From a virus (taxonomy: Duplodnaviria; Heunggongvirae; Uroviricota; Caudoviricetes), in IMG/VR virus record IMGVR_UViG_2534682108_000010, positions 1 through 18,141 of that record: a DNA stretch of 18,141 bases. The stretch is one strand, 5' to 3'. Position 1 is the stretch's first letter. Every line of letters starts with the position of its first letter. Below the pieces are notes generated by a model. The model ran no database searches and was not told where the DNA came from. It worked only from the letters and a program-made list of their open reading frames with translations. Shown here piece by piece: positions 1 through 14,953 of the stretch. Both the position numbers and the translations under genes were made by a program.

Positions 1-321
1 CGGCTCAGGGCGGTCATAGGTTTCAGGTAACGGCAGCCCTTCGCCAAAAGCCATACCATTGGACTGACCGGCAAGCGCGATCACATAGTAATATTCTGGC
101 GCAACAGAAGGCGCTGAGGTCGTCGGACGGTTGCCTGACTCCTCTGGTGATGAGATGCTCCCCTCACTCACAACTGGCTGGATGAACTCCGCACCATAAC
201 CAGCTGTCGAAATCAGCGCACTACCATAAGGCTGCCACCCTTCCTTCAGTTTTTGAGTTATTCGTTTCGCAAGGTCTGACGGCGACGCCGCCCTGACCAC
301 GTCATAGTGTTTAAATGCCAT
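1..321 (-). CDS. NanS-p-like sialate O-acetylesterase, N-terminal part only (gene continues beyond the window start)
   Basis: Minus-strand ORF starting at ATG 319-321 with GGAGG RBS (rc of 326-330). Translation MAFKHYDVVRAASPSDLAKRITQKLKEGW... then YYYVIALAGQSNGMAFGEGLPLP, which matches the GQSN esterase motif of NanS/YjhS-type enzymes preceded by a DUF1737-like N-terminus, as in Stx-phage nanS-p. Confidence 0.7.
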   Translation of the reverse strand, partial: MAFKHYDVVRAASPSDLAKRITQKLKEGWQPYGSALISTAGYGAEFIQPVVSEGSISSPEESGNRPTTSAPSVAPEYYYVIALAGQSNGMAFGEGLPLPETYDRPEP

Positions 322-409
322 TATTCCTCCCCTTTCCGGGATTTTCCTCAACAGTTGCGGGCCACGGTCCGGCTACACGGAGAATCAAAAGAGGAGAACC
401 GCAGCCCGC

Positions 410-440
410 AAAACGAAAAAGGCCGCGCAGTTGCGCAGCC
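410..440 (-). terminator. Rho-independent terminator (minus strand)
   Basis: On the minus strand: 8-bp stem ggctgcgc/gcgcggcc with tetraloop aact, followed by TTTTTCGTTTT. Confidence 0.6.
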
Positions 441-540
441 TTATCACAGATGGTAAAAATCAGAACACGATAATAAAAATACCTGATGTATATTCATGCG
501 ACCCGCCCGCCACTCACTGAGGGCTTTTTTTTGCCCATAG

Positions 541-567
541 AAAAGCCCCTCCGGAGAGGGGCTTTTT
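541..567. terminator. Bidirectional intrinsic terminator hairpin
   Basis: gcccctc-cgga-gaggggc hairpin at 545-562 flanked by AAAA on one side and TTTTT on the other. Confidence 0.6.
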
Positions 568-1018
568 ACAGTGGTAGTGTAGACAATTTTGCATGGTGCC
601 GGATGCCTCCCGGTGAATTCTGCAATGACCAGACAGAATCCGCAACTTGCCTATACAATACGCAACCAAACATCTGTCATTATGCCCCGCCTCACAGGGG
701 GATTCACCATGCAAAATCATTTTTAACAAAACAGCATGTTATTCTCCAGTACCCGGCATAATGAAATGTGATGTTCTTAGCATTTTTAAAACCCCGAACT
801 TAGTGGTGATTATTTTTATTAGACACCCCTGTTTCACAGTAACTTTATTTTCTGTTTGGGCCACTCTGGCTCAATACTAAAATTATTAATTATCGACAAA
901 AATATAGTAAATAAATAAACAAGTTCCGAGAAAACCAATAACTATCATTGCTAATGCCAGCATAAATAGTTGTTGTGTGTTTATTTTTACGGTAGTGTAT
1001 TCAAAGTGTTGATTCCTG

Positions 1019-1387
1019 TTATCGCAGGTAATATTCCCGCTCAATAAATGTACCAATCACTTTGTCGTGCATTTCTGTGGATTTCGAATACCCCAGAGTT
1101 TTCCGGTTTAGTCGTTTCAGTCTGTTCCTGAGGTTCAGGTTTTCACGTTCGATGCGTTGCGTATAAAGCTTACCTGTGATGTGTTTTTCATTCGGCAATA
1201 TGTCGTAAGCCCGGAAGTTATCTGTACACCAGAAAGCAACATTAAATCCCGATAACCGCTTCAGTAACTGGCGAAATACCTTTTTACTTCGACGACCAAA
1301 AGCATGGGCAACAATACGTTTGAGACGAGGCTCCCATGCATACCACAGCCAGCGCTGTTGCTTTTTATTGCCGACAAATGACCACAT
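1019..1387 (-). CDS. insB: IS1-family transposase InsB-like ORF (normally expressed as an InsAB' frameshift fusion)
   Basis: Translation ...QRWLWYAWEPRLKRIVAHAFGRR...YTQRIERENLNLRNRLKRLNRKTLGYSKS...HDKVIG aligns by eye with IS1 InsB (QRWLFYAYD...[29 protein letters not shown]...HDKVIG), roughly half identical. Confidence 0.7.
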   Translation of the reverse strand: MWSFVGNKKQQRWLWYAWEPRLKRIVAHAFGRRSKKVFRQLLKRLSGFNVAFWCTDNFRAYDILPNEKHITGKLYTQRIERENLNLRNRLKRLNRKTLGYSKSTEMHDKVIGTFIEREYYLR

Positions 1388-1440
1388 CTCATCAACTTCA
1401 CAGATGAGCTGAATTTTCAGGTCATCCAGCGGCAGTGTGG

Positions 1441-1630
1441 TTACACATCGTGGTGCGAGTTTTTTAATGTGCGCACAACGGCATTAATGCTGATATGCAG
1501 CACCCGTGCGGTGTCACGGATGCCCGCATTGTTCATTGCAAGGTCAACAATTTGCTCTTTCATGCCGTGCTGGCAGGCACGATGATTCGGTTTGCCCACA
1601 AAACGGGCATTTTACGTCAACTTTAGCCAT
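1441..1630 (-). pseudogene. insA: insA-like gene of the IS1-family element, apparently frameshifted
   Basis: ATG at 1628-1630 (rc) gives MAKVDVKCPFCGQTE... which stops after 28 codons; the HTH part (...MKEQIVDLAMNNAGIRDTARVLHISINAVVRTLKNSHHDV, stop 1441-1443) is in a different frame. Confidence 0.5.
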
Positions 1631-1751
1631 TCGCAACACTCAGCAAAAGGAGTAATATTACAACATGATCAACACTTTGAATACTTGCCCATTTTTACCG
1701 ATGAAAGGTAACGCAGAAAAATACTCAACATACAGTCCCCATAATCCTCTA

Positions 1752-1827
1752 TGGAGCGGCCAGCTGGAATCGAACCCGCATCATCAGCCTGGAAGGCCGA
1801 GGTAATAGCCATTATACGATGACCTCA
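1752..1827 (-). tRNA. tRNA-Gly(UCC)-like sequence, probable pseudogene
   Basis: D-arm, anticodon arm (loop CTTCCAG, anticodon UCC) and T-loop closely resemble E. coli glyT, but the 5' acceptor strand (tgaggtc) cannot pair with the 3' strand (tggccgc) and the T-stem has a G-A mismatch. Confidence 0.5.
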
Positions 1828-1904
1828 TGGTGCGCCATACTGGATTCGAACCAGTGACCGATTGCTTAGAAGGCAATTGCTCTGTCAGGCCGAGCTAACA
1901 ACGC
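1828..1904 (-). tRNA. tRNA-Arg (anticodon UCU)
   Basis: Hand-folded cloverleaf: acceptor GCGTTGT/ATGGCGC (with G-U pairs), D-stem GCTC/GAGC, anticodon stem ATTGC/GCAAT with loop CTTCTAA, T-arm ACTGG-TTCGAAT-CCAGT, 3' CCA encoded. Confidence 0.85.
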
Positions 1905-1917
1905 TGAATACCGATAA

Positions 1918-1994
1918 TGGACCGCCATCGGGGACTTGAACCCCGCGCAGCCAGCTTCGAAGGCTGGCGCTCTGTCCCGATGAGCTAATGGCGG
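1918..1994 (-). tRNA. tRNA-Arg (anticodon UCG)
   Basis: Perfect acceptor stem CCGCCAT/ATGGCGG, D-stem GCTC/GAGC, anticodon stem CCAGC/GCTGG with loop CTTCGAA, T-arm CGGGG-TTCAAGT-CCCCG, CCA encoded. Confidence 0.85.
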
Positions 1995-2003
1995 TATCTG
2001 ATA

Positions 2004-2079
2004 TGGTGGCCCTTGCTGGATTTGAACCAGCGACCTGGCGATTATGAGTCGCTCGCTCTCACCACTGAGCTAAAGAGCC
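2004..2079 (-). tRNA. tRNA with CAU anticodon, ileX-like (tRNA-Ile2 / Met-type)
   Basis: Acceptor GGCTCTT/AAGGGCC, D-arm GCTC-AGTGGTGA-GAGC, anticodon loop CTCATAA, T-arm GCTGG-TTCAAAT-CCAGC; from the anticodon arm onward it is nearly identical to my recollection of E. coli ileX. Confidence 0.85.
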
Positions 2080-2241
2080 GGGCGCAGGATAATAACGGTA
2101 CGTAACTAATTCTGCAATATCATCCGTTCTGACTGACTAAATTCTGAACTTCCCTGACCGTCTGCTCAAAACGTTCAGTCTCCAGCTCAACACCAGTTGC
2201 ACGACGTCCCAGCGCCATTGCTGCTTTGACGCTACGGACAT

Positions 2242-2270
2242 AAAAAAGCCAGCCACTGGGGGAGGCTGGC
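2242..2270 (-). terminator. Rho-independent terminator (minus strand) between Q and the tRNA array
   Basis: 7-bp stem gccagcc/ggctggc (2248-2270) with a 9-nt loop, followed on the minus strand by TTTTTT (fwd A-run 2242-2247). Confidence 0.6.
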
Positions 2271-2450
2271 AAACTCGTAGAGCAAAATGCTGTTACGCAA
2301 ACTTCGTTACAGGGTTATCCTGTAATACAAAAAATACACAATATTTAGAAAACTAATAGTGCCATATGAGATTTTTAAGATTTTGTTATTAATTGCGGTC
2401 GTACCTTCCTTTCTGTGTACTTTCCGTATAGCTCACAGGATTCTGGGTAC

Positions 2451-2473
2451 AAAAAAACCCGCGCATCGGCGGG
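2451..2473 (-). terminator. Rho-independent terminator about 50 bp downstream of Q (candidate tR')
   Basis: Minus strand: cccgc-cgatgc-gcggg hairpin followed by TTTTTTT. Its position immediately after Q matches the short pR'-tR' transcript of lambdoid phages. Confidence 0.6.
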
Positions 2474-2520
2474 TTCTGCTGCGTGGCAATGTAACCACTC
2501 TTATCATGATATGCAGATTT

Positions 2521-2955
2521 TTACGATCGTAAACTATTTTTTCGCTGATAAAATACAGAGCTTCTCCCTCCCGGCAATTCACGCTCAACATACCGATCCA
2601 TCTCAAGCCTCACTCCCAGCATCATCAGCATGCCTTCAACAATCCCCTCCGCTTTGTGAAGGCGTTTACCTATACAGGTGTCAGAGCACCCATGTTTCCG
2701 TGCCAGCGCCATGAACGTCTCCCCCAACACGTAGTAATCAACCAGCAAGTCATGCAGATCGCGATTGTTCCGGTAAAGGCGGGCTACGCACCCGCATATC
2801 ACCATCGCATCATCGTCACAACATTGCGGGCGAGATTTTACTTTTGAAGGAATTAATCCCTTAAAACCGGCGGCAATGGACGACCAGGTCACATCTTCAT
2901 GATTATTAGCCGCCCACGCTCCCCAACGCTCAAGAACCATCTGAATATCACGCAT
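2521..2955 (-). CDS. Late-gene antiterminator Q
   Basis: Translation [38 protein letters not shown]... with a Cys-rich region, recognised as a lambdoid Q-family protein; GGAG RBS 8 nt upstream of ATG 2953-2955; the ORF-track start at 2970 is a TTG. Confidence 0.85.
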
Positions 2956-3040
2956 CAACTTACTCCACAAAACTCAGACCAGAACGCCAATTACAAGCAA
3001 AAATCAACAAAACAGTATTAGTTGATTGTTATCTCTGACT

Positions 3041-3181
3041 TCATACTCCTGCTCCTGTCAGTGTTTTGGCGTAATTCTTCAGTATTCGGTAATCGGTCAA
3101 AACAGAACCGGGGAAACGATATAAGCGCAGACGCCCCCAGCGGTGGCGAAGAAGTTCTGCCATATTAAACTCAAACATCAT
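3041..3181 (-). CDS. ylcG: Small nin-region protein, YlcG-like (46 aa)
   Basis: [49 protein letters not shown], with ATG overlapping the rusA stop (ATGA coupling); same position as DLP12 ylcG between rusA and Q. Confidence 0.6.
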
Positions 3182-3540
3182 TCATTCCCCATTTCGGTGA
3201 TGGTCAGTTCCAGCCTCCCACCTTTGGTAACAGGCATCTTCACAACGCGGTAATCAACGACCTGAGCATCATCCAGCCAGAAACCTGCTTTAGTGAGTGC
3301 GTCAAAAGCGGCTTTTTGCAGATTATCCAGGTCACGGCGACGGCGATCCGGCATGTGGCACTCAATGCGGATTTTCACAGGCATAGCCAGGCCGATATCC
3401 AGCATTGCGTTTTTAATGATTCGGGCGACGTTATCGCGGTATGCCTGCCCCTCTGCACTGACGTGCGTGCGCCCGCGATTATGGCGGTAATAGCGATTAT
3501 TGCTCGGAGGCCAGGGTAATGTGATACTGTAGGTATTCAC
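3178..3540 (-). CDS. rusA: Holliday-junction resolvase RusA
   Basis: Translation [42 protein letters not shown]... recognised as RusA; GTG start overlapping the upstream stop. Confidence 0.9.
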
Positions 3541-3827
3541 GCCTTAATAACCCCCTCTTTCAGCCAGATAACCTGTGTTCTCGCCATACCTTCCAGCGCG
3601 CATTCTTTTGCATATGCAGCATCGACAAAATGTGTGCGGCGGTCGATTTCGTCGTGGCAGGCAGAACATGCAATGGTGGCAATCAGGTCTGGCGGTTTGA
3701 TACCGGTACCGCACAATCCAGCCAGCCGGATATGTGCCAGTACAGACGTTTCAGAATTGCCATTACATACGCCAGGGATTCTTACCTGGCATTCCCGACC
3801 ACGCGCTGCTTTTCTCAAATCAGCCAT
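3537..3827 (-). CDS. ybcO: DUF1364-family nin-region protein (YbcO-like)
   Basis: Translation [47 protein letters not shown]...CSACHDEID... recognised as YbcO-like; ATG at 3825-3827 overlaps the ninE stop. Confidence 0.8.
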
Positions 3828-3990
3828 GATTCCTCCTTGCTGCCAGTCGCAACCATTTTTTATCAACCAGGCTAGCGGTATATCCGAGCAGTGTTGGTAT
3901 TTCGGATGGCTTCAGCTCAGGCTTACGCTTACGACGATTTGATACTCTGTAGATGTGTCCGTTCATGACACGAATAAGCGGTGTAGCCAT
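3820..3990 (-). CDS. ninE: NinE-like small protein (56 aa)
   Basis: [59 protein letters not shown]. The C-terminal ...YTASLVDKKWLRLAARR resembles lambda NinE (...YTAHLWDIRWLRRRAR); ATG overlaps the ybcN stop. Confidence 0.6.
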   Translation of the reverse strand: MATPLIRVMNGHIYRVSNRRKRKPELKPSEIPTLLGYTASLVDKKWLRLAARRNHG

Positions 3991-4445
3991 TACGCCTCCT
4001 GCTTGTCACGGAGCTGCTGGAACTCGCAGCTCTGCGGAATAGTCAGATGGCAACCAATATTCATCGCCCAGGCTTCAACCTTACACAGGAAGACATACAT
4101 CTCTCCGGTATCAAGATCGGAGGTATGGCGTAACGACTGGATAGTGGTGATATCACCGGTTACGACATCAACCAGGTCTTTGGTTTCATAACCGAGATAT
4201 GTGTGTTTGAGAGCATCTTTTACCCAAGCTGGAGTGGCGAACGTTTTACCCCTGCTGATGAGGTATTCACTGATTTCGCTGTACCACATGTGGCTGAGTG
4301 CATTCTGGGAAAGACTGCGTTTCTCACGCCACGGTTTAAGCACCATGCGAAAGCATTTGCCTTCCTCCAGATAAGGCTGGATCTGCTGGCCGATAGCGGT
4401 GAAGTTACCACGATGCAATTTGATGCCGTCTTGTGGGAGGTTCAC
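3990..4445 (-). CDS. ybcN: YbcN/NinB-family protein
   Basis: 151-aa ORF with GTG start preceded by GGAGG; the motif [20 protein letters not shown] resembles the NinB RNRSLDQNRKLW region; position and length match DLP12 ybcN. Confidence 0.65.
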
Positions 4446-4478
4446 GCTTCACCTCCGCAGAGGTCAAACGCTGGATGC

Positions 4479-4563
4479 AAAAAATCGCAGGTGCATCTCT
4501 GCATCTGTGAAGGGAGAAGAGAGTTTGGATTGTATGTGCGCATAAACGTCCCCGTTTAGCGCA
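4479..4563. repeat. 85-bp direct repeat, copy A
   Basis: 80 of 85 positions identical to 6413-6497; contains a palindromic hairpin tgcgcataaacg-tccc-cgtttagcgca (10-bp stem with 1-nt bulge, tetraloop). Confidence 0.85.
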
Positions 4564-4639
4564 GAAGTCACCGGAGTTGTTCAAGCTCCAATGGCATGAT
4601 TATGGCTGGTTGATTATTGGAAATCAAATGTGCTGAAAA

Positions 4640-5149
4640 TTAGTCTGCCAAGTCTTCCTCAGTCGCAACTGGGTAATTCCAAATATCAAAAAAAGCTATA
4701 GCCTCCTGCCATTTGCTCCATAAGTTATCAAGTACTTGTGTAGGTTCCGTACTTTTAAAAACAGAATCAGCCGCATCACCGTTATGAACTTCCTCGTACA
4801 GTTCCATTATTAGCAGATTAACAAAGTACTGTTTCAACATTAATGCCTGATTACCTTCTTTCTGCTGGCTATCCTGCTTGATGAGCTCCATCGCCCGTAC
4901 TAGGCACCTGATGATATCCGCTGCATCATTAACGCTCCATTCAGATCCGCGCTTATCTTTAGCTGATGAATTGGCTCTCTCAGCGCAAGCCTTTAAAGAC
5001 TCATAAAGGTAAACTCTATTTTGTAGCTGCAGCGCTTTTTTTGACGTGCACCAACTTGCAAGCGCCGACCCCGCTGCGGCTAATGTGCCAAACGCAGAAA
5101 TGCCTGCTGCTATTGCACTTAAGTCGGCACTGTCAAAGTTCCACATCAT
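4640..5149 (-). CDS. Hypothetical protein with hydrophobic N-terminal segment (putative membrane anchor)
   Basis: 169-aa ORF, ATG with AGGTG RBS; N-terminus LSAIAAGISAFGTLAAAGSALASW is hydrophobic; AT-rich; no family recognised. Confidence 0.5.
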   Translation of the reverse strand: MMWNFDSADLSAIAAGISAFGTLAAAGSALASWCTSKKALQLQNRVYLYESLKACAERANSSAKDKRGSEWSVNDAADIIRCLVRAMELIKQDSQQKEGNQALMLKQYFVNLLIMELYEEVHNGDAADSVFKSTEPTQVLDNLWSKWQEAIAFFDIWNYPVATEEDLAD

Positions 5150-5384
5150 CGTTACACCTTATATAAACACCCCTCAGTAATATCCAATAAGGTATGTGAA
5201 CAATCAATATAATTTATATCCGTATCGGCACATAGCGATTTTAATGCTACTGATAATGGTATCTTTTAGATTATATCGTCCAGTTCCAGTACCCGTATTT
5301 TATGAAATGGACTCGCACATTACCAAAAAAAATGCCAGCACTTCCGTCATCGCAGAATGCTGGCAGTATTTCTAACTAGTGACT

Positions 5385-5993
5385 TTATTGCAACAGATTC
5401 TGACGGAAATATGGTAACACACGACTCCACTTATCATCCTGCCACGGTTGGAATTTTACATGCGCCGTTTCTCTGGCAAGGATTTCTCGCGCCCTGTTGA
5501 GTATCCGAGGATATTCTTGTTCGATTGAAGTGAATCTACCTGCTTCGCGATGCTCTGCGACCTGAAGAAGGGGCGTAACGTTCTGGCAGGCGGTTAACAT
5601 CGTATCACTTGCTCGCCATAACCAGGCGAGTGTGCAAAGTTCGTTATCAGTGAATTGTTTTGTGATTGGGGATTGTTGAACTTCTCGATCGAGAATATCC
5701 AGAACCCAGCGGCGGAATTCTTTGGCCACAGGAGTACGAGCAAACATGGCGATCAAATGGGCTCCGCGAAGGCTAAATACTCGAGACTCCTGCATTCCAC
5801 GAGGGGTGGTCACTTTGACCACCCTTGTCATCATATCTGTGAATTCATCCGAGTGCCGAGAGTAAATGCGCTGAACTGCTTTATCGTCCGCATATTCCAG
5901 TGCTAAACCAACTTCAGTGGCAGTAAGCCAAATTCTGTTATTGTGGCAAATCGGGGTAAACGTCGTTTTGTGGAATGCTAATTGAGTAGTCAT
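5385..5993 (-). CDS. Bro-N domain protein (antirepressor / Roi-like)
   Basis: N-terminal region FHKTTFTPICHNNRIWLTATEVGLALEYADDKAV...RVFSLRGAHLIAMFARTPVAKEFRRWVLDIL matches the Bro-N pattern; ATG with GAGGTG RBS. Confidence 0.7.
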   Translation of the reverse strand: MTTQLAFHKTTFTPICHNNRIWLTATEVGLALEYADDKAVQRIYSRHSDEFTDMMTRVVKVTTPRGMQESRVFSLRGAHLIAMFARTPVAKEFRRWVLDILDREVQQSPITKQFTDNELCTLAWLWRASDTMLTACQNVTPLLQVAEHREAGRFTSIEQEYPRILNRAREILARETAHVKFQPWQDDKWSRVLPYFRQNLLQ

Positions 5994-6149
5994 AGTATCA
6001 CCTCATCAGGTTAACCATCACCACCAACGACGCCAATCGACTGGTGGTGAACTGTGTAAGGTTGGCGTAACCGGCTACTCAAACCCGGCGCTTCCGAAGA
6101 AGCCCTCACACAGCCCACCATAATTTGGGCATAGCCGTGCTTAGCGCAC

Positions 6150-6170
6150 AAAAAAACCGCTTAACGCGGT
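6150..6170 (-). terminator. Possible rho-independent terminator (minus strand)
   Basis: Minus strand: accgc-gttaa-gcggt hairpin followed by TTTTTTT. Confidence 0.45.
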
Positions 6171-6412
6171 ATGCGTTGAGTAGTATCCCGGGACGCCAAT
6201 CCCGTGTGCCGATTTTGCGGCAACGCACAGAATATAGCGCCGGATAAATCATGTCGTCAACCCCAGTAAATGGACACCATGATGATCACAGCCATAGCTG
6301 CTACAACAGTTACAACTACCTCAGGCCAAAACATAACGATTTCCATATCACCTTTAGCCGCCAGACGAATAGAGACTCCCAATTCTGGCTGTCGAAGTAA
6401 AACACCGAATGT

Positions 6413-6497
6413 AAAAAATCGTAGGTGCATTTCTGCATCTGTGAATGGAGATGAGAGTTTGGATTGTGTGTGCGCATAAACGTCCCCGTTTAGCGCA
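6413..6497. repeat. 85-bp direct repeat, copy B
   Basis: 80 of 85 positions identical to 4479-4563, with the same internal hairpin. Confidence 0.85.
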
Positions 6498-6805
6498 ACC
6501 CCACCACCGGGTGTTCAGGCCGACAGTAACTATATTATTCCCTACTGATTTTTGAAAATCAAAGGTCTTTATACGTCACACGAGAGCAAATATTTCCGAA
6601 GAAGAAACCTTTCGCCTTGAAAGGATAAAGAGTTCATTTCATAAATTGAAATATTCAATAAGAATATTGCAAAAAATGAAATTATTTACTAGCGAGTCTA
6701 TCTAACTGATAATTATGAAGATTGTAAGCGGTAGCAATCACCCGCATACACATTGAACAGGATTTAATACAAAACGTCTTAAATTGTCCGTAAGGAATAG
6801 CACGA

Positions 6806-8308
6806 ATGACTCAAACTCCTCTATTACTTGCAATCATATTTTTATTGGTTGTTCTTGTTCTTTATATAGCTGCAATCAAACGCATCAAAAAAATACAATT
6901 AGAATTAAGTGATAGCAATCAAAAAAATGAAGAATACAAATCTCGCTTTGCAGATTATTTTAATGTAGAAGAAGAATGTAAGAAGCTTATTGAGAAAACA
7001 GAGCAAGAATGCTCCATAATAAAAGAAGAATCCCTAAAAGTAAAAGAAAATGCCAATAATGAACTAACAAACACCATTGAAAAAATGGATGGTATCAATA
7101 AACAAATCCAAGAGCTAAGAAGAACTTATAAAGAGAAGAAAGAAATATATGATAAACTAGTAAGGCAAATTTCTATTTATTCAGAAGATGTTGAGCTAGC
7201 CGAACTAGGATTTTACGAACCTCATTTTAATTTTGAAGATTCAGAGCAATTTAAAAACAAAATAAAATCCATCAGGGATGAACAGAAATTAATGCTGCGG
7301 GATAAAACCCACTCTGGCGCAGTATATTGTACAACCCAATGGACTGTTGAAGGCTCTCGAGCAGAGGGTAAAAAAATGACAGACAGAAATATCAGGCTAA
7401 CTACTAGAGCATTTAATAATGAATGTGATGCTGCAATTAGCAATTGCACGTGGAAAAACATCACTAAAATGGAAGAACGCATCACAAAGGCATTTGAGGC
7501 CATAAATAAACTAAACGAGCAAAATCACATATATATAAACACTAAATACCTCAATAAAAAACTTGAGGAATTGTGGCTTACCCATGAATATCGTGAGCAA
7601 AAACAGAAAGAAAAAGAAGAACAGGCAGAAATAAGGGCACAAATGAGAGAGGAGGAGCGTGCACAACGAGAAATAGAAAAGGCCATGCAAGACGCAGAGG
7701 CAGAAGAGCGCCGTTATAAAAAAGCAATTGAAGCTGCAAGAAAGGAAATGGAAAAAGTTACTGGTGACATGAAGCAGCGCCTCGAAAATCGCATTGCCGA
7801 ACTAGAACAGAGTTTGTCGCAGGCTGAATCAAAGCATCAAAGAGCATTATCCATGGCACAACAAACCAAACAAGGTCATGTTTATATTATTTCGAACATA
7901 GGTTCTTTTGGGGAGAATGTTTATAAAATAGGCATGACACGACGTCTTGATCCGCAAGACCGTGTAAATGAGCTCGGTGATGCATCTGTTCCTTTTATTT
8001 TTGATGTACATGCCATGATTTATTCGGAGGACGCTCCATCATTAGAAAAAAAACTACATGATGTCTTCGATAAAAAGAGAGTCAATCTTGTAAATCGTAG
8101 AAAAGAGTTTTTCTATGTTACTCTGGATGAGATCAAAGAAGCTGTTAAAAAACACTCTGATTCAGAAATTGAATTTATTGAGACAGCAGTCGCAAAAGAC
8201 TTTAATGAGTCATTGGCTATTCGTAATCATGAAAATAAAAAAAGTGACAACAGCAACTCATCAATTATACCTGAGCGAAAAATCCCAGAGTTTGCAGATG
8301 CAATTTAA
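6806..8308 (+). CDS. Membrane-anchored coiled-coil protein with C-terminal T5orf172 (GIY-YIG-like) domain, DUF4041-type architecture; candidate accessory/defence gene
   Basis: 500-aa ORF, ATG with AAGGA RBS; N-terminal hydrophobic helix LLLAIIFLLVVLVLYIAAI; long K/E-rich predicted coiled-coil; C-terminal GHVYIISNIGSFGENVYKIGMTRRLDPQDRVNELGDASVPFIFDVHAMIYSEDAPSLEKKLHDVFDKKRVN...EFFYV, recalled as the T5orf172 pattern; visibly AT-rich; opposite strand to all neighbouring genes. Confidence 0.8.
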   Translation: MTQTPLLLAIIFLLVVLVLYIAAIKRIKKIQLELSDSNQKNEEYKSRFADYFNVEEECKKLIEKTEQECSIIKEESLKVKENANNELTNTIEKMDGINKQIQELRRTYKEKKEIYDKLVRQISIYSEDVELAELGFYEPHFNFEDSEQFKNKIKSIRDEQKLMLRDKTHSGAVYCTTQWTVEGSRAEGKKMTDRNIRLTTRAFNNECDAAISNCTWKNITKMEERITKAFEAINKLNEQNHIYINTKYLNKKLEELWLTHEYREQKQKEKEEQAEIRAQMREEERAQREIEKAMQDAEAEERRYKKAIEAARKEMEKVTGDMKQRLENRIAELEQSLSQAESKHQRALSMAQQTKQGHVYIISNIGSFGENVYKIGMTRRLDPQDRVNELGDASVPFIFDVHAMIYSEDAPSLEKKLHDVFDKKRVNLVNRRKEFFYVTLDEIKEAVKKHSDSEIEFIETAVAKDFNESLAIRNHENKKSDNSNSSIIPERKIPEFADAI

Positions 8309-8556
8309 TTAATTTGTAGTAGCAATAAAGCAGGCATCGTTGAGAATATTTTGTCAGCGATGCTTACTTCTCTAACAAAAACGGTGATTACCAACGAACT
8401 AACGGACTTCAGGTAATCATAAGACAAATGGAACGACTCTCCGGTGATTAGATCCCTGCAATAACAGTAATTTTCTACTAACTGAAAAATCTTTAACTGC
8501 CGCTCCTATTTCTAAGCTGACTGCTAGATTACATGGTGTGTTACCGATGAAAACCG

Positions 8557-8859
8557 TCACAGCAAGTTTAAGTTCATATCTCCATACACTGCCAACACTC
8601 GTTTCATCGCGGCACTCTGGCGACACTCCTTGAAAATCAGATTCGTGCTCACCTTTCCTTCCCGTTCTTCCCTGGTAGCGAAGCGGTAATACACCGTTCG
8701 CCAGACCTTACCATCAATGACTAAGATTCCTGCCCGTGCCATTTTAGCCGCAGCCTGATTTATACTGGTTACTGTTGCGCCTGTTACCGCAGCAACGTCC
8801 TGCGCACAGAAGCTCTTATGCGTCCCCAGGTAATGAATAATTGCCTCTTTGCCCGTCAT
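8557..8859 (-). CDS. ren: Ren-like protein
   Basis: Translation MTGKEAIIHYLGTHKSFCAQDVAAVTGATVTSINQAAAKMARAGILVIDGKVWRTVYYRFATREEREGK... recognised as lambda Ren; ATG overlaps the P stop. Confidence 0.8.
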   Translation of the reverse strand: MTGKEAIIHYLGTHKSFCAQDVAAVTGATVTSINQAAAKMARAGILVIDGKVWRTVYYRFATREEREGKVSTNLIFKECRQSAAMKRVLAVYGDMNLNLL

Positions 8860-9557
8860 ACAGTTGCTCCTTTCAGTCCGAACTTCGCTTTGATTTCTGC
8901 GATCTTCGCCAGAGCCTGTGCACGATTTAGAGGTCTACCGCCCATGACAGGAAGTTGTTTTACTGGTTCAGGTATAGCCTCACCACGGTTAATTCGTGCG
9001 GTCATACAGGACAGTTCATCGGCAGCCTTGCGCCGTAATTCCGCGTCAGTCAACGCATTGGTCCGCATGTTCTGGTACAGGTTGGTAACCAACCAGTAGT
9101 GCGCGTTTGATTTCCACGGATAAGACTCTGCGTCCGGATACAGGCCACGCTTCCGGCAATACTCGTAAACCATATCAACCAGCTCGCTGGCGTTTGGCAG
9201 CCCGGCGGTAACGGATGCTTCTTCCCGGCACCAGGCAACAAACTGCCCGGGTGATGGCAGGAATGGTCGATTCTGCCGACGGGCTACGCGCATTCCTGCG
9301 TTAACCTGTTCCATTGTGGTGATCCCGTTTTCCCGGAAAGCCAGAACCCACTGGCGGCGGATTTCGTTCAGTTCGTTCTGATCCCGGTTAGCCAGGCTCG
9401 CAGGGAAAGTTGCCAGTAACTGGCTGAACACACCGTTGATGATCTGCGCTACCTGCTGTACCTGCGGCTTTTCGTCGTACTGTTCCGGCATATTGTTGGC
9501 GATCCGGCGCATCTGCTCACGGTCAAAGTTAATCATCTGTGCGGCGATGTTTTTCAT
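8856..9557 (-). CDS. P: Replication protein P (DnaB helicase loader)
   Basis: 233-aa translation MKNIAAQMINFDREQMRRIANNMPEQYDEKPQVQQVAQIINGVFSQLLATF... essentially identical to lambda P as I recall it. Confidence 0.95.
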   Translation of the reverse strand: MKNIAAQMINFDREQMRRIANNMPEQYDEKPQVQQVAQIINGVFSQLLATFPASLANRDQNELNEIRRQWVLAFRENGITTMEQVNAGMRVARRQNRPFLPSPGQFVAWCREEASVTAGLPNASELVDMVYEYCRKRGLYPDAESYPWKSNAHYWLVTNLYQNMRTNALTDAELRRKAADELSCMTARINRGEAIPEPVKQLPVMGGRPLNRAQALAKIAEIKAKFGLKGATV

Positions 9558-10483
9558 AGATCCACCCCGTAAATCCAGTCTGTGTTTGTCAGGTCGAGTT
9601 TTGGTTTTCCGGCTGTCACGCCAGCCTGTTGTTTGTTACGGTTGATTTCGAGTTGGGTCCACTTGTCGCGAAGTTTGGCCGGGCTCAGCACGTTACCAGA
9701 CCAAAAGTTGTCCTGGCATGCCCAGCGGAACAGCATGCACATGTCGCGGTGGTTACGTCCGTCACGTTCACGCATCAGGCGGATATCGTTAGCCCACCCT
9801 GCAAAATTCGGTTTTCTGGCTGATGGCGCGATGGTCTTCACCATGTCAAACATCCACTCTGCGGCGGTCAGGTCTTCTGCTGTCCCCCACCTGCTGCCGC
9901 TCTGAATTGCAGCATCTGGTTTCTCCACAGGAAGATCGTTTTCTGGTTGGTCAGAGGATTCGCCAGAATTCTCGGACGAAAAAGGTTTTATATTGTCTTT
10001 TGTTAGTTTGTCTTTTGTGTTTACCTGATTCGGGTAAACGCCTTTACCTGATTTGGGTAAACTTTTCTTACCTGATTCAGGTAAATTTACCTCTTTCAGG
10101 TAAACTTTATTTTTCTTACCTGATTCGGGTAATGTTGACCATTCACTGACCAAATTATTAATGCCGATATTCCGCCCGCTCTGAATAAGAATCCCACGCT
10201 TTACCAGAACGCTTTTTGCAGCAGAACACTTGTGCGGCAATATCCCGGTCAATTCGGAAAGTTGCTCGTTGCTCACCCAATCCAGTTTTTTATTAAAGCC
10301 ATATGTTTTGCGCATGACAGCCAGGAAGACCAGAAGCTGGTGCTGTGTTAATCCGGCCAGCATCACAGCTTCCAGCAACTCATTTGCAATGCGCGTATAA
10401 CCATCATCGAGATCTGCCACGCGCGGCTCCTTTTGTGCCACATCCGGCACTGGAAAATTGAATATCTCAGCAGTGTTTGCCAT
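9554..10483 (-). CDS. O: Replication initiator O
   Basis: From ATG 10481-10483 (GGGAGG RBS): MANTAEIFNFPVPDVAQKEPRVADLDDGYTRIANELLEA... resembles the lambda O N-terminus; the iteron array lies inside the ORF; the in-frame extension to 10573 in the ORF track is probably not used. Confidence 0.85.
   Translation of the reverse strand: MANTAEIFNFPVPDVAQKEPRVADLDDGYTRIANELLEAVMLAGLTQHQLLVFLAVMRKTYGFNKKLDWVSNEQLSELTGILPHKCSAAKSVLVKRGILIQSGRNIGINNLVSEWSTLPESGKKNKVYLKEVNLPESGKKSLPKSGKGVYPNQVNTKDKLTKDNIKPFSSENSGESSDQPENDLPVEKPDAAIQSGSRWGTAEDLTAAEWMFDMVKTIAPSARKPNFAGWANDIRLMRERDGRNHRDMCMLFRWACQDNFWSGNVLSPAKLRDKWTQLEINRNKQQAGVTAGKPKLDLTNTDWIYGVDL
10021..10133. repeat. Replication origin: five 18-19-bp iterons plus adjacent AT-rich segment (9961-10020)
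   Basis: Repeats ttacctgattcgggtaaa / ttacctgatttgggtaaa / ttacctgattcaggtaaat / ttacctctttcaggtaaac / ttacctgattcgggtaat inside the O gene, followed in O-sense by an AT-rich stretch; this matches lambda-type ori organisation. Confidence 0.85.
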
Positions 10484-10569
10484 AATTCCTCCCGCAATGA
10501 GTGTGTTACGATTTGCACCTGAAAGTCGGTTCTGTTCGCGCAGACCGGCTTTCGCCATTTCTGAACCTG

Positions 10570-11115
10570 TCATATTGCCCCCAGCATGGTGGTGACCATC
10601 GCCATCAGTGGACCAGCCAAATCCGGGTCCACACGAAACATCGACACAATGCCTTCACTCATCTCCTTCAGTTTCTGGTGGCGTGGTGCGTTGAGAATGA
10701 CAGCCTGTTTTGCCTCACTGAGTTCCTTTTCCATTTCAGCCAGCCGAGCCATGAAGCTATCCTGCTCAACCAGGTGGCCGCGATATTTCAGCGGTAGTAC
10801 TGCCAGAATTGCTGGAGTCAGTTCACGCACGTTATTTCGGTATTTTTCAGAATCGAATTTGTTATCGAGAAAGCGGAACAGCTTCTGGCGTGCACGACTG
10901 ACATCATCAGAAAAATCGATAGTGCCGCCGCCCTGTGCTCGATACTCATTCACAATGAGTGCGGCAACGACATCCTGATTATCTACAGCCGACCAGGCGC
11001 GGATGGCATCACGGATTTTTTCGTGGCCTGGCACCTGTTTTATTTGAGAACGATTTATCACCGCAGTCGGGATAAATCCGCTAGTCTGTTGGTATGTAAG
11101 TGGTTGCATAGTCAT
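10570..11115 (-). CDS. YdaT / CII-like early regulatory protein (Phage_CP76-type)
   Basis: 181-aa ORF between the Cro-like gene and O (the cII position); assignment from position and size, with weak recollection of YdaT-type proteins. Confidence 0.55.
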   Translation of the reverse strand: MTMQPLTYQQTSGFIPTAVINRSQIKQVPGHEKIRDAIRAWSAVDNQDVVAALIVNEYRAQGGGTIDFSDDVSRARQKLFRFLDNKFDSEKYRNNVRELTPAILAVLPLKYRGHLVEQDSFMARLAEMEKELSEAKQAVILNAPRHQKLKEMSEGIVSMFRVDPDLAGPLMAMVTTMLGAI

Positions 11116-11139
11116 TGCCTTATCAGTTAACGCCGCAGT

Positions 11140-11367
11140 TTAGGCGGCAGAATTACTCGCGTTAAACAATGGTGCGAGGTCGGGACGAATATCTGCTGGT
11201 TTAATCTTTCCACCAGTGGCTGAGACAATTTTCATTACATAGCGGGCATCAATTCCGCCACCGTGTAGCCAACGCCAAACAGTGGGTTGGGCTACACCGC
11301 ATAGATCTGCCAGTCGTTTTTGACTACCTGTAATACTGATTGCGAGTTGAATGGTTTGATTTGTCAT
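11140..11367 (-). CDS. Cro-like HTH regulator (YdaS-type)
   Basis: Small ORF MTNQTIQLAISITGSQKRLADLCGVAQPTVWRWLHGG... with HTH; divergent from the CI-like repressor; ATG 11365-11367 with AGGA RBS. Confidence 0.7.
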   Translation of the reverse strand: MTNQTIQLAISITGSQKRLADLCGVAQPTVWRWLHGGGIDARYVMKIVSATGGKIKPADIRPDLAPLFNASNSAA

Positions 11368-11477
11368 TATCAATTCCTATTGGTATTGCAATGAATGAAT
11401 AATAGCAATGCGTATTAATCCAAGCAATAGCAAAACGTGTTTTGACCATCAATACGCAAGCGTATAAATTAAAACTT
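11368..11477. promoter_or_regulatory. Immunity control region (OR-like): divergent promoters and operator repeats
   Basis: Minus-strand promoter TTGCTT-17 bp-TATTAT (-10 at 11399-11404, rc) for the Cro-like gene; plus-strand TTGACC (11442-11447)-15 bp-TATAAA (11463-11468) just upstream of the repressor ATG (11478), so the leader is very short; repeated AATAGCAAT/TATTGC motifs and a 14-bp palindrome ATACGCAAGCGTAT. Confidence 0.6.
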
Positions 11478-12170
11478 ATGAAAAAAGAAACTCTTGCTGA
11501 TCGCTTAAACCTAGCGATGGAACAATCTGGAATGTCTCAAGGCGCTCTTGCAAAGGCGTCTGGCGTAGCTCAACCCACAATCTGGAGACTGACAAGCGGC
11601 AACGCGCGCGGCTCAACAAAAATTGTTGAAATAGCTAATGCATTGGGTGTTCGAACAGAATGGCTCTCATCAGGCATAGGCCCGATGAGAAATGACGGTC
11701 AACAATCAGGGAAGCCTGCTGTCAGCCATTCCAAATACTTCAAAATTGACGTTCTTGATATAGAAGTCAGTGCCGGGCCGGGTGTAATCAACCGTGAGTT
11801 TGTAGAAGTTCTACGCTCGGTTGAGTACTCGTTTGACGATGCTCGTCACATGTTCGATGGCAGGAAGGCGGAAAATATCCGCATCATTAACGTGCGTGGT
11901 GACAGCATGTCAGGAACGATCGAACCAGGTGATCTGCTGTTCGTTGATATCACGGTTAAATCTTTCGACGGTGATGGTATCTATGCGTTTCTGTACGACG
12001 ACACAGCCCATGTAAAGCGTCTGCAAATGATGAAGGATAAGCTGCTGGTTATCTCTGATAACAAGAGCTACTCACCGTGGGACCCGATCGAGAAAGACGA
12101 GATGAACCGGGTGTTCATCTTCGGTAAGGTTATTGGGAGCATGCCGCAGACGTATAGGAAGCATGGGTAG
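11478..12170 (+). CDS. CI-like repressor (HTH plus S24 LexA-like autopeptidase domain)
   Basis: From ATG 11478: MKKETLADRLNLAMEQSGMSQGALAKASGVAQPTIWRL... (HTH); C-terminal VRGDSMSGTIEPGD and HVKRL recalled as the S24 Ser/Lys pattern; the ORF-track start at 11442 is a TTG. Confidence 0.85.
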   Translation: MKKETLADRLNLAMEQSGMSQGALAKASGVAQPTIWRLTSGNARGSTKIVEIANALGVRTEWLSSGIGPMRNDGQQSGKPAVSHSKYFKIDVLDIEVSAGPGVINREFVEVLRSVEYSFDDARHMFDGRKAENIRIINVRGDSMSGTIEPGDLLFVDITVKSFDGDGIYAFLYDDTAHVKRLQMMKDKLLVISDNKSYSPWDPIEKDEMNRVFIFGKVIGSMPQTYRKHG

Positions 12171-12216
12171 CGGATTAGCTAATCATTATGATGTTGTTCA
12201 AATTTAAGAGGTCCGC

Positions 12217-13065
12217 ATGTCTTCGATTTGGGGAAAAAAGTTGATGACGAAAGAACAAGAGTCAAACACTGATGAAGTGAAACCAGAGCAAGGAAGTTTG
12301 TTTGAATTAGAATTTCATGAATATACACCTTCAAGCTTAGGCACAGCACACCTTTCTGGTTTCGCTATTGCCACTGATGAAATGGAATATGCAGTTAAAA
12401 GCATGCGCTCCACCCCACCTTTTCCTGTACAAAACCCAACTCAAGTACCGGCAGCGGAATGGTTTTGCACAAATTTAGCTGAAAAATGCGGCATCGCTAC
12501 ACCTGTGTGCAAAATTCTCAAGTGTATTGCTAATGGGGAGTATGTTTTTGGCTCTCGCATAGAGTTTTCAGCCTGGAAATCTGGTCTCAATAGTCCTCAA
12601 TGGATAAATTTGCTCTCAAATGCTTCTGAATCCTTAAAGAAGCAACTCTGGGCAATTTATGCATTTGATCAGTTTGTATATAACATTGACAGACACCTCA
12701 ACAACTACTTATACATGGAAAACACCCGAGGCAATGTTATAGTTAAAACATTCGATTTTAGTCTAAGCTCTTTTGTTATAGGCTGGCCACGAAATACCCC
12801 TCATATACTACCAACAGACTCCAGTACAACAACAAACTGGACGATTGCTAAACAATTCATTGGCGACACTGATGATCTGAGAAAGTGCGCATTATCTGTC
12901 CTTGACAAAATTGAAAAAATTGGAGTTGAGGCTATATCTGATATACTTAACTCTATGCCTGAAGCATGGATGCCACCAATGCATAAGGAGTATTTTTTGA
13001 AGTGGTGGGACAGCGAGGAGCGAATCGATAGGCTAAATGCCATAAGACTGGAGATAACATCTTGA
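12217..13065 (+). CDS. Hypothetical protein with kinase-like catalytic-loop motif (HipA / PI3-PI4-kinase-like); candidate defence gene A
   Basis: 282-aa ORF 46 bp downstream of the repressor, AAGAGG RBS; motif NIDRHLNN followed 21 residues later by FDFS resembles the N-x-D-x-H-x-x-N ... D catalytic pattern of HipA-type kinases; AT-rich. Confidence 0.75.
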   Translation: MSSIWGKKLMTKEQESNTDEVKPEQGSLFELEFHEYTPSSLGTAHLSGFAIATDEMEYAVKSMRSTPPFPVQNPTQVPAAEWFCTNLAEKCGIATPVCKILKCIANGEYVFGSRIEFSAWKSGLNSPQWINLLSNASESLKKQLWAIYAFDQFVYNIDRHLNNYLYMENTRGNVIVKTFDFSLSSFVIGWPRNTPHILPTDSSTTTNWTIAKQFIGDTDDLRKCALSVLDKIEKIGVEAISDILNSMPEAWMPPMHKEYFLKWWDSEERIDRLNAIRLEITS

Positions 13066-13868
13066 AAACTTTCAAATACAGCTTAATCAGAGTTACACCG
13101 AACTTAGAGAAAGGTGAAACGATTAACGTTGGTTTGATCGTTTACCATGACTCTGACATAGACGTACGTATGCTCAATTCAGTTTCAAAACTTAAAGCGA
13201 TTGACAAAGATCTTACCTTAGATTACTTAGAGGATCTTTCGACCTCGCTTTTTGATTTGTCACAAAAAATCAACAATGCTGAACTTCTTCCTTGTCTTTT
13301 TAAGGGAGCATTATCGTTATCGTCATTTGGCATGTTCACTCTTCAAGCCAACGAAGATTACGAAGCTAAAGTTACTGATCTAATGAATCGGTTAGTAAAC
13401 CCACAAAAACAGCCACATAAACAGTTGAAAAAAAAGGTTTTTTCTGAATTAAAATCCACCTTTATACAACATGGAATTTTCAGTAAGTATTTTGAAGATC
13501 TTTCCCAACATAAAATCGTAGCTAATTATCCAATTAGTAATGAAGAAGGGTTAGTTGCAGATTTTTTGTTAAAAAATGGCAAATACCATCTTACAGAAAC
13601 ATTAGATTTTCGTTCTGAAAATATAAAAAAACAAATGGGTGAAGCTGCGATAAGTGTTTTAACAATTACTAAAGCCTACGAATTATACAATTCAAATATT
13701 GATTCATTTGTAATTTTTGCCGCTGAAACGACAGCACAAGAAAAGTCAGCAAAACAGCAGCTAAATCTACTGGAAAAACACGCTGATAATCTTATCAACG
13801 CATATAGCAAAGAAGACATGCGTTCATATTACGAAAAGATGCTGAATGCTGCCTCTATGTTACAGTAG
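13062..13868 (+). CDS. Hypothetical protein, partner of the kinase-like gene; candidate defence gene B
   Basis: 268-aa ORF whose TTG start overlaps the upstream stop (TTGA), GGAG RBS 8 nt upstream; N-terminus MKTFKYSLIRVTPNLEKGETINVGLIVYHD; followed by terminator 13896-13922; AT-rich. Confidence 0.75.
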   Translation: MKTFKYSLIRVTPNLEKGETINVGLIVYHDSDIDVRMLNSVSKLKAIDKDLTLDYLEDLSTSLFDLSQKINNAELLPCLFKGALSLSSFGMFTLQANEDYEAKVTDLMNRLVNPQKQPHKQLKKKVFSELKSTFIQHGIFSKYFEDLSQHKIVANYPISNEEGLVADFLLKNGKYHLTETLDFRSENIKKQMGEAAISVLTITKAYELYNSNIDSFVIFAAETTAQEKSAKQQLNLLEKHADNLINAYSKEDMRSYYEKMLNAASMLQ

Positions 13869-13895
13869 AAAAAACTGACTAATTTAATTAATAAC

Positions 13896-13922
13896 CCGGC
13901 CACCGTGCCGGGTTTTCTTTTG
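13896..13922 (+). terminator. Rho-independent terminator ending the repressor operon
   Basis: cccggc-caccgt-gccggg hairpin followed by TTTTCTTTT. Confidence 0.7.
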
Positions 13923-14039
13923 TCCCCTCCCCTCATCACACACCGCTCAAAAAACCACCACATCCCTGCTTCAGTTATCGCTATGCGATGCAAGTCACAA
14001 AATTAATTCTTTTTGCTATCAAACATTTAATATCAAAAC

Positions 14040-14575: not shown

Positions 14576-14651
14576 CCCCCCTTTCCTGTTTTCCTAATCA
14601 GCCTGGCATTTCGCGGGCGATATTTTCACAGCCATTTTCAGGAGTTCAGCC

Positions 14652-14948: not shown

Positions 14949-14953
14949 AACGG

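Follow-up and report, generated by a model that had tools for sequence, protein, structure and literature searches.

The window analysed here comprises positions 1 to 18,141 (18,141 nucleotides, nt) of the IMG/VR virus record IMGVR_UViG_2534682108_000010 (Caudoviricetes) and is a lambdoid prophage read from right to left. The minus strand is the functional strand, from which all relevant genes are read, and the order along it is cII-O-P-ren, PD-Lambda-1 (on the plus strand), repeat copy B, a cassette, repeat copy A and ybcN-ybcO-rusA-ylcG-Q. Copies A and B, the subject of this analysis, form the longest direct repeat in the window (4460-4563 versus 6394-6497), with 104 nt at 89% identity, ungapped and at a spacing of 1934 nt, followed by a runner-up pair of 49 nt at 73%. 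An earlier reading of the letters without database searches (the sequence-only reading) had described 85-bp direct repeats bracketing the cassette, each with a palindromic hairpin and an A/T run. Both observations were borne out: the 85-nt core (4479-4563 and 6413-6497) contains five mismatches, and the two copies carry the A/T run and an identical hairpin, termed hairpin 2, whose stem was measured at 11 bp with a 1-nt bulge and a tetraloop. Beyond the repeat recognised in that reading, which had also missed that the minus strand is the functional one, the homology carries on in more diverged form over roughly another 70 nt towards the 5' end in the sense direction, passing a further hairpin (hairpin 1) and a promoter-like site (4564-4627 and 6498-6562), so that the whole module, termed the unit below, spans about 190 nt. 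Its parts are as follows.

4460-4563, minus strand: repeat copy A, high-identity part, from the repeat search
4599-4627, minus strand: promoter-like site of copy A, with -35 TTGATT at 4627-4622, a 17-nt spacer, -10 CATAAT at 4604-4599 and a predicted start near 4592
4569-4593, minus strand: hairpin 1 of copy A, CAUUGGAG / CUCCGGUG with loop CUUGAACAA (contains YUNR), from folding and covariation
4537-4563, minus strand: hairpin 2 of copy A, UGCGCUAAACG-GGGA-CGUUUAUGCGCA, with a GNRA loop that is also Shine-Dalgarno (SD)-like and the ylcH AUG (4543-4541) in the 3' arm
4442-4543, minus strand: leader open reading frame (ORF) ylcH/orf33, 33 codons, its TGA stop overlapping the GTG start of ybcN (4445)
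3990-4445, minus strand: ybcN/orf151, NinB-family, first gene of the nin-Q block
6394-6497, minus strand: repeat copy B, high-identity part, from the repeat search, holding hairpin 2 (6471-6497) and a non-conserved ylcH-like ORF (6316-6477)
6534-6562, minus strand: promoter-like site of copy B, TTGATT-N17-AATAAT, with a predicted start at about 6527-6530
6501-6529, minus strand: hairpin 1 of copy B, UUACUGUCGG / CCGGUGGUGG with loop CCUGAACAC, a stem unlike that of copy A that still pairs

The promoter spacer of copy A contains AATCAA, which gives a palindrome TTGAT-N8-ATCAA overlapping the promoter. To our knowledge, this palindrome has no convincing match among the consensus sites of FNR, Fur, LexA, IHF and CRP. 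Hairpin 1 starts about 5 nt past the -10 element, no more than a few nt from the predicted 5' end of the transcript, and is joined to hairpin 2 by a CUUC linker; the two-hairpin region of copy A folded with a z-score of -5.07. Within ylcH, GAUGCAG (4505-4499) pairs with UUGCAUC (4480-4474) to form helix 3, and at the end of the ORF (around 4444-4471) ACCUC pairs with the ybcN SD sequence GAGGU in an SD hairpin. Copy B has the same hairpin 2 (6497-6471), and its similarity to copy A stops inside the ORF, which runs for 53 codons into unrelated sequence and shares no stop/start overlap with a NinB-family gene. Covariance model R1 matched copy A at 4533-4602 (88.8 bits) and copy B at 6467-6537 (65.9 bits), with no third copy in the window and no match over the lambda ren-ninB region. 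The unit matched no Rfam family, either in a scan of the whole window (E<=1) or in one of a 231-nt region (E<=10). A trans target of the hairpin 1 loop was sought in the window, where TTGTTCAGG had seven matches with at most one mismatch against 5.0 expected, two of them being the loops themselves. A weak hairpin with a U-run lies inside the unit at 4486-4503; a small RNA ending there was considered and set aside, as the stem has just 4-5 bp and the U-run varies among units.

Copy A is the E. coli K-12 ylcH / phage 82 orf33 together with its leader, directly upstream of ybcN. It is 97.1% identical to positions 114-217 of the phage 82 record X92588 (orf33, overlapping the start of orf151) and 96.2% identical to K-12-type copies, with the same position and the same overlap with ybcN/orf151; the K-12 counterpart is ylcH (b4588, 572368-572469), which overlaps the ybcN start. 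Just 5' of the matched stretch, at 50-110, X92588 annotates the same promoter site as a putative -35/-10 and labels the hairpin 1 stretch a 'possible regulator-binding site'. Unlike ylcH/orf33, copy B breaks off within the ORF and stands in front of another gene. The X92588 and K-12 records hold a hypothetical ORF and putative signals only, and the RNA covariation, the coupling design, the spread across genera and the second copy are not described there. A literature search for ylcH with ybcN and for the sequence strings of the unit found no paper; ylcH by itself came up in a codon-usage paper and in one expression table. Over a 3-kb query spanning both repeats, the window is 99.6% identical to Escherichia phage PhiR26_1.

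The unit was found in 2885 of 5426 complete E. coli genomes at a median of one copy (131-nt query of unit and hairpin 1), and it also occurs in Enterobacter, Citrobacter, Lelliottia, Trabulsiella, Huaxiibacter, Scandinavium and Pseudescherichia. It was sampled twice independently, by an exact hairpin 2 pattern in viral contigs and by an exact core pattern with one genome per species. Across 126 fetched loci, ybcN follows at a near-fixed offset after 117 of 134 copies, and the gene after the unit belongs to the NinB family (PF05772) in at least three deeply divergent subfamilies, and is once NinG. The 400 nt upstream of the units fall into 36 unrelated clusters, including DLP12-type ybcK/L/M-emrE, esterase, Rha-type genes and PD-Lambda-1. 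In the alignment, homology among units begins exactly at a TTTGATT motif, which is the -35 element; together with the unrelated upstream contexts, this marks the unit as the point where the conserved nin block begins on its 5' side, behind a hypervariable slot. The sequence-only reading had suggested module exchange at a conserved linker and had proposed searching other prophages for the repeat as a junction marker. These 126 related loci, with 36 contexts on one side and a near-fixed gene on the other, agree with that suggestion, as do seven cassette-free loci with the flanks of the window that are described below. Lambda carries at the same position before ninB the intrinsic terminator tR2 and a plain SD, not the unit.

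One of the Enterobacter loci (L146, Enterobacter sp. BIGb0383, NZ_RJKQ01000002.1) contains at approximately 5480-5560 what was judged by eye, from its repeats GGTTTATCCCCGCTGRCGCGGGGARCAC, to be a type I-E-like array of clustered regularly interspaced short palindromic repeats. A 32-nt spacer of this array, TTGTCACAGATGCAGAAATGCACCTGCGATTT, is identical to the Enterobacter-type core of the unit, which indicates that the conserved leader was sampled as a protospacer.

Hairpins 1 and 2 covary, and pairing is kept in helix 3, on the sense strand and across at least seven genera. Hairpin 2 appeared in 12 stem versions across genera, with at least seven unrelated stems, all of them paired over 9-12 pairs; examples are GCGCUAAACG/CGUUUAUGCGC, GCAUUUAAG/CUUAAAUGC, GCGCUUUGAG/CUCAAAGUGC and GCAUAUGAUU/AAUUAUAUGC. 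Its loop is GGGA in 10 of the 12 versions, the others being GGAA, GUGA (the tetraloops all fit GNRA) and the six-nt CGGGAA, and an AUG or GUG lies within the 3' arm in every version examined. Hairpin 1 likewise combines many different stems with a conserved loop, YUGARCA. Folding and covariation analysis across homologues had been suggested in the sequence-only reading, which took the repeat as possibly a duplicated element of regulation or RNA structure. When 35 diverse sequences were aligned with MAFFT without structural guidance, RNAalifold recovered both hairpins, with double, compensatory changes in 8 of 17 pairs. Paired cells amounted to 94.8%, against 82.3% in shuffles (0 of 500 reached the observed value) and 32-49% with slid partners, and double-change cells numbered 67 versus 23 in shuffles (0 of 500). 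G.U exceeded A.C by 49:1 in hairpin 1 and 9:0 in hairpin 2, and this excess in both hairpins identifies the sense-strand RNA as the selected fold. Helix 3 (GAUGCAG with YUGCAUY at a fixed offset of +27) formed 7 of 7 pairs in 105 of the 114 distinct units, versus 16 of 114 with a shuffled arm. In the B-type copies of L063 and L021, a C>U plus G>A double change preserves helix 3 yet creates a TAG stop in the ORF.

Promoter geometry was kept in 105 of the 114 distinct units, with TTGATT in 99, a 17-nt spacer in 103, CATAAT in 83 and AATAAT in 18. Units departing from this consensus have another promoter-like sequence, for example TGTTATAAT, at the same place. The inverted repeat TTGAT-N8-ATCA, with a variable centre, was present in 97 distinct units; the palindrome in the promoter spacer looks like an operator for a dimeric DNA-binding protein and may act as one.

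The leader ORF has 31-33 codons in 101 of the 114 distinct units, and in 106 of them its stop either overlaps the following start codon or lies directly next to it. Both the length and the overlap persist despite in-frame indels and despite N- and C-termini that are unrelated across genera. The 33-aa YlcH itself could be imagined as the function of the unit, as a small regulatory or toxic peptide with copy B as a paralogue; the ORF figures in the annotation of K-12 and of phage 82, it is open in 116 of 136 copies in the phage and viral-contig set, and the core QMQKCTCDFLH recurs across genera. This explanation is nevertheless improbable on the evidence of the codons: the 46 distinct E. coli ORF sequences encode 44 distinct peptides, variable sites are spread over the three codon positions as 18/18/15, with no third-position excess and no sign of purifying selection, and all five core mismatches between copies A and B are non-synonymous. 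In the core, conservation is at the nucleotide level and extends to third positions, the peptide belongs to no Pfam or PHROG family, and the ylcH-like ORF of B-type copies has often acquired a stop or a frameshift or lost its start, with the hairpins retained. What appears to be kept in the leader is translation that ends on the next start, not the peptide. The leader ORF and the paired SD of the next gene correspond to the standard design for translational coupling, and coupling would be their function. If true, such coupling would explain why ylcH is 'conserved' without protein-level constraint.

Two sets of published experiments bear on the unit. A two-hairpin covariance model run over the whole Gifsy-1 genome gave a single match at 36603-36642 on the minus strand (18.6 bits). 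This counterpart (L173, NC_010392, 36575-36665, minus strand), the sequence of which is also in Gifsy-2, consists of TTGACT-N17-CATAAT, a hairpin 1 with the identical loop CCUGAACAA on a compensated stem, and a hairpin 2 with GGAG in the loop and the STM2620 AUG in the 3' arm (z -3.6). Its predicted start (around 36632) lies 1606 nt upstream of the antQ start codon. The start site of the antQ operon (SL2582-SL2579), whose RNA rises on AnrP or IsrK expression, was reported '1,600 bases upstream' (Hershko-Shalev et al. 2016, PMC4825925). The location of the counterpart at this reported start supports, by homology of design, the promoter of the unit as a real operon start.

In E. coli MG1655, Term-seq placed RNA 3' ends at 572349 and 572350 on the plus strand (context ...GTCACCGGAGCCTGAACAACTCCGGTGACTTCTG followed by CGC), in the class 'upstream ORF -19 ylcH', and the filter applied keeps such an end only with a mapped start site 21-200 nt upstream (Adams et al. 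2021, PMC7815308). These ends fall 5-6 nt past hairpin 1, at the first bases of hairpin 2. They indicate that the sense RNA exists and that hairpin 1 defines an end, and with the covariation they agree with the idea of a duplicated regulatory RNA element. The predicted K-12 start (about 572318), approximately 31 nt upstream of the Term-seq end, is compatible with the filter and is not pinpointed by it; the ROSE supplement lists no start site for these genes. Promoter activity of the unit is likely, as supported by Gifsy-1 and by the Term-seq filter. The 3' end after hairpin 1 may arise by attenuation, by cleavage in the linker or as the end of the ybcM mRNA.

The same 3' ends could be taken to mean that the unit is mainly a transcription stop, a counterpart of lambda tR2 with hairpin 1 as a terminator or attenuator and an incidental 'promoter'. 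The presence of tR2 in exactly this position in lambda and the weak internal hairpin with its U-run would fit as well, and we regard this explanation as unlikely for several reasons. Hairpin 1 is followed by GACUUCUGCGC in the unit and by AACCUGACAA in Gifsy-1, with no U-tract; hairpin 2 also lacks one, whereas tR2 has one, and the internal U-run is variable. A conserved -35/-10 pair with a 17-nt spacer stands directly upstream, alternative promoters substitute in divergent units, and the Gifsy-1 counterpart coincides with a reported start site. Nor would a stop signal need the conserved loop, the start-codon hairpin or the leader ORF.

The repeat might also be a neutral homology patch left by recent duplication or recombination, without function. 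The copies are 89-94% identical between unrelated flanks, the ORF of copy B decays in several loci, and the repeat length differs between loci, all of which such a patch would show. A patch of this kind predicts no covariation, a prediction that has already failed. It would hardly show two hairpins and helix 3 whose pairing has been preserved in seven or more genera through compensatory and wobble changes, promoter geometry retained in 105 of 114 units, a leader length and stop/start overlap that survive in-frame indels, or the recurrence of the design in Gifsy-1 with a different sequence, and the probability of a functionless repeat is accordingly rated as quite low.

The segment between the copies contains the following features.

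6257-6346, minus strand: hydrophobic ORF of 29 aa (MEIVMFWPEVVV...), between copy B and isrK, phrog_4612
6231-6260, minus strand: isrK promoter-like site, TTGACG-N18-TATATT (10/12)
6150-6222, minus strand: isrK RNA (RF01394), 58.7 bits versus a gathering score of 50, with its own terminator ACCGCGUUAAGCGGU and U-run
6040-6125, minus strand: C4 antisense RNA (RF01695), 74.8 bits versus a gathering score of 45
5385-5993, minus strand: antirepressor with Bro-N and P22_AR_C domains
5325-5364, minus strand: intrinsic terminator after the antirepressor gene, folding energy (dG) -18.6, z -3.65, followed by U8
4640-5149, minus strand: variable cargo gene of 169 aa, phrog_1779, in a slot that differs between two-copy loci

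The sequence-only reading had placed two minus-strand genes and a probable terminator in this segment, namely a Bro-N gene and a gene for a 169-aa protein with a hydrophobic N-terminus. All three stand, the hydrophobic N-terminus being visible in the translation and phrog_1779 being of unknown function; the isrK RNA, the C4 RNA and the 29-aa membrane ORF had been overlooked. A c4-a1b1 match at 6185-6237 overlaps isrK and is sub-threshold (39.6 versus a gathering score of 46.7). PADLOC gave no match for the 169-aa cargo protein or the antirepressor. An alternative 57-aa form of the small hydrophobic ORF (6257-6430, minus strand) starts from an ATG in the copy B core, and it is this form that PHROG 4612 models. 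The unit as a target of the C4 or IsrK RNA of the cassette was rejected, since RNAduplex energies were no better than those of shuffles (fraction at least as good 0.18-0.88).

Approximately 8% of loci have two copies, at a spacing of about 1.93-2.46 kb, and the B-type junction occurred in 299 of the 5426 complete E. coli genomes. After the upstream copy, two-copy loci show the order small hydrophobic ORF (found in most of them and disrupted in L059), 202-aa antirepressor and then cargo; an Rfam scan of six such loci found isrK and C4 following the upstream copy in 6 of 6. The cargo consists of a 169-aa gene, a 118-aa gene, a pair of 138 and 133 aa, or genes of 66, 81 and 195 aa, and two-copy loci re-converge 68 nt before the downstream unit, at its promoter. 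In L021/L063 and L059/L103 the 138-aa and 133-aa genes overlap, and the 138-aa protein is a weak PADLOC candidate (PDC-M28A, E 1e-5); the two genes, which occupy the same slot, may form a toxin-antitoxin pair or serve in defence. A single unit preceded by the 169-aa cargo and a partial antirepressor gene is seen in PhiR5_1 and four other loci. PhiR5_1, the sole locus of this kind scanned with Rfam, gave neither isrK nor C4.

Genomes with a single repeat and no cassette, which the sequence-only reading had proposed to look for, were found in seven loci (L024, L088, L019, L067, L081, L037 and L068) that share the flanks of the window. Their left flank, on the PD-Lambda-1 side, is 97-98.6% identical to the window and their right flank (unit A and ybcN) 95-97.6%. 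The L024 unit is a chimera of the copy B hairpin 1 and the 3' part of copy A, including the rare GAGATG variant, and the switch from B to A lies inside the A/B-identical stretch centred on hairpin 2. By its sequence, an L024-type allele would be the product expected of homologous recombination between the repeats of the window, or a substrate for the reverse insertion. The duplicated stretch measures 104, 108, 130, 138, 158-159 or 165 nt depending on the two-copy locus, which is in keeping with homologous rather than site-specific exchange. In L066 (474-638 and 2937-3107) the duplication reaches further upstream and both copies stand in the same upstream context cluster, which suggests a duplication separate from, or more recent than, that of the window. 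A recombination role of the unit appears well supported by these alleles, and recombination may well be the actual route by which the cassette moves.

The hairpin repeats could alternatively be folded single-strand sites of the integron attC type, used by a site-specific recombinase that mobilises the cassette. An imperfect palindrome with an extrahelical base occurs at both cassette ends, presence and absence of the cassette are clean, and the strand asymmetry (as G.T) would suit a folded DNA strand too. Against this stand the absence of an annotated recombinase gene in the equivalent region of PhiR26_1, the lack of a fixed crossover point over duplicated stretches of 104-165 nt, the placement of an SD-like loop and start codon in the hairpin within a promoter-leader-ORF layout, and the fact that most genomes have a single copy fixed before ninB. 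A recombinase site of this kind is very improbable.

Taken together, the repeats are probably copies of a portable operon-head module of DLP12/phage-82-like lambdoid prophages that serves both as a regulatory leader and as a homology patch. Its parts would be a sigma70 promoter with a palindrome, hairpin 1, the start-codon hairpin 2, helix 3, the SD hairpin and the stop/start overlap. At the RNA level, the module would give the nin-Q operon a promoter of its own, and translation of ylcH would gate that of the first gene (NinB/YbcN); hairpin 2 would contribute to this gating, and hairpin 1 may be a stabiliser or an attenuator. At the DNA level, comparison shows the module to be highly conserved between two variable flanks, which makes it the homology patch at which modules swap. 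In the window, the second copy, truncated within ylcH, heads a unit of membrane ORF, isrK, C4 and antirepressor, followed by the cargo gene. Homologous recombination between the copies would delete the 1.93-kb segment, and the reverse event would insert the cassette into any prophage carrying the unit.

Several observations weigh against this explanation. Mahdi et al. 1996 reportedly found DLP12 rusA to be poorly expressed, which would make the promoter weak, repressed or attenuated. The conservation of the core and of hairpin 2 is partly by construction, both having served as search patterns. Copy B cannot use the same coupling, as its ylcH-like ORF is broken in several loci, and its hairpin 1 alone is thermodynamically marginal and no more stable than shuffles (z -0.62). 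The filter places the E. coli start no more precisely than within 200 nt, the Term-seq counts are low at approximately 1.6-1.9 thousand (PMC7815308), and the end could be that of the upstream ybcM mRNA. RNA that ends right past hairpin 1 also implies that many transcripts may never reach ylcH.

A further explanation, possible though doubtful, is that the unit is a regulatory switch common to lambdoid prophages of many Enterobacteriaceae, a lysogen-active promoter whose transcript would start with a recognition hairpin (YUNR loop) and a GNRA hairpin locking the first start codon. It would be read by a protein on the palindrome, or by an RNA or protein on the loops. As the same head precedes both the isrK-C4-antirepressor module and the nin-Q operon in this prophage, one signal would release the antirepressor and Q together. 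If true, this would amount to a repressor-independent route to the late genes, similar to Gifsy-1 IsrK > AnrP > AntQ and hard-wired by duplication of the control region.

The portable operon-head module can be compared with several known systems. The Gifsy-1 isrK-orf45-anrP module (PMC4825925) shares with the cassette isrK, a C4-type RNA and a Bro-N antirepressor, and the operon-head counterpart of Gifsy-1 likewise stands before a Q-containing operon. Gifsy-1 has its isrK module downstream of Q, and the window has it between the two operon heads and upstream of the nin-Q block. A leader ORF is missing from the Gifsy-1 head, where the AUG of the first gene sits in hairpin 2 itself, and by RNAduplex against shuffles the window showed no isrK-leader complementarity. 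The immunity systems P1 immI (c4 RNA - icd - ant) and P4 seqA/CI/seqC share with the cassette a C4 RNA, an upstream a1b1-like stretch and a downstream antirepressor. Compared with P1 immI, the a1b1 stretch of the window is below the gathering score and there is no icd, and the repeat unit is in no described immI system. Mosaic 'linker' boundaries and moron or defence slots in lambdoid nin regions have reportedly been described by Susskind & Botstein, Juhala et al. 2000 and Clark et al. 2001. The unit resembles such linkers as a short conserved sequence between variable modules, with alleles that have and lack the insert, and the slot that it marks contains PD-Lambda-1, esterase, ybcK/L/M and the candidate pair of 138 and 133 aa. 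It is unlike them in that the boundary itself is a structured, covarying promoter-leader, of which two directly repeated copies enclose the insert.

Coupling through a leader ORF when the SD is sequestered is known from mok/hok and orf45/anrP, and 5'-terminal stabiliser hairpins are of the ompA type. As in mok/hok and orf45/anrP, a short upstream ORF ends on the next start and the next SD is paired; unlike mok/hok-type control, no antisense partner for the unit was found in the duplex search with C4 and IsrK of the cassette. The stem-loop at the extreme 5' end of the predicted transcript is shared with ompA-type stabilisers, although a simple stabiliser would not need the conserved loops of the unit (YUGARCA and GNRA), which sets it apart from such hairpins.

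Annotation of the ORF and of the putative signals goes back to 1996, and mosaic boundaries, moron slots, immI-type modules and coupling by upstream ORFs are also already known. Two points appear to be new. The 'linker' is a promoter-leader RNA module that shows covariation, is shared across Enterobacteriaceae and was found neither in Rfam nor in the literature searched; and the duplicated unit brackets an isrK-C4-antirepressor cassette with clean empty alleles. Over half of the complete E. coli genomes have the element, among them K-12, whose annotation calls it only 'uncharacterized protein YlcH'. If true, the operon-head module would account for the way in which lambdoid prophages, cryptic or active, express the nin-Q block or keep it silent without recourse to pR and N, and would explain the shuffling of antirepressor/small-RNA modules and of defence or moron cargo into a fixed slot between the replication genes and ninB. 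The unit would also provide a defined docking sequence with which cassette insertion in lambdoid phages could be predicted or engineered, and the link to Gifsy-1 antQ suggests relevance to prophage induction and Q-mediated toxicity.

Further features were found around the repeats. The PD-Lambda-1 defence gene (6806-8308, plus strand; 658 bits in PADLOC, with DUF4041 and T5orf172/MUG113) lies directly upstream of copy B and against early-right transcription, and a terminator-like hairpin is situated at 6608-6624 (minus strand), by PD-Lambda-1 and copy B. Between Q and the downstream region, four tRNA genes occupy 1752-2079 (minus strand), namely Met(cat), Arg(tcg), Arg(tct) and Gly(tcc); in PhiR26_1 the place of this cluster is taken by an OmpD porin moron. 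Beyond the tRNA cluster, downstream of Q, a full-length match to the small RNA STnc100 was located at 533-739 (minus strand; 141.6 bits versus a gathering score of 47), which is also found in PhiR5_1. The O-like replication gene (9554-10573, minus strand) contains four to five iterons of 20-22 nt (TTTACCTGATTCGGGTAAAC) at 10016-10134, which are presumably the replication origin.

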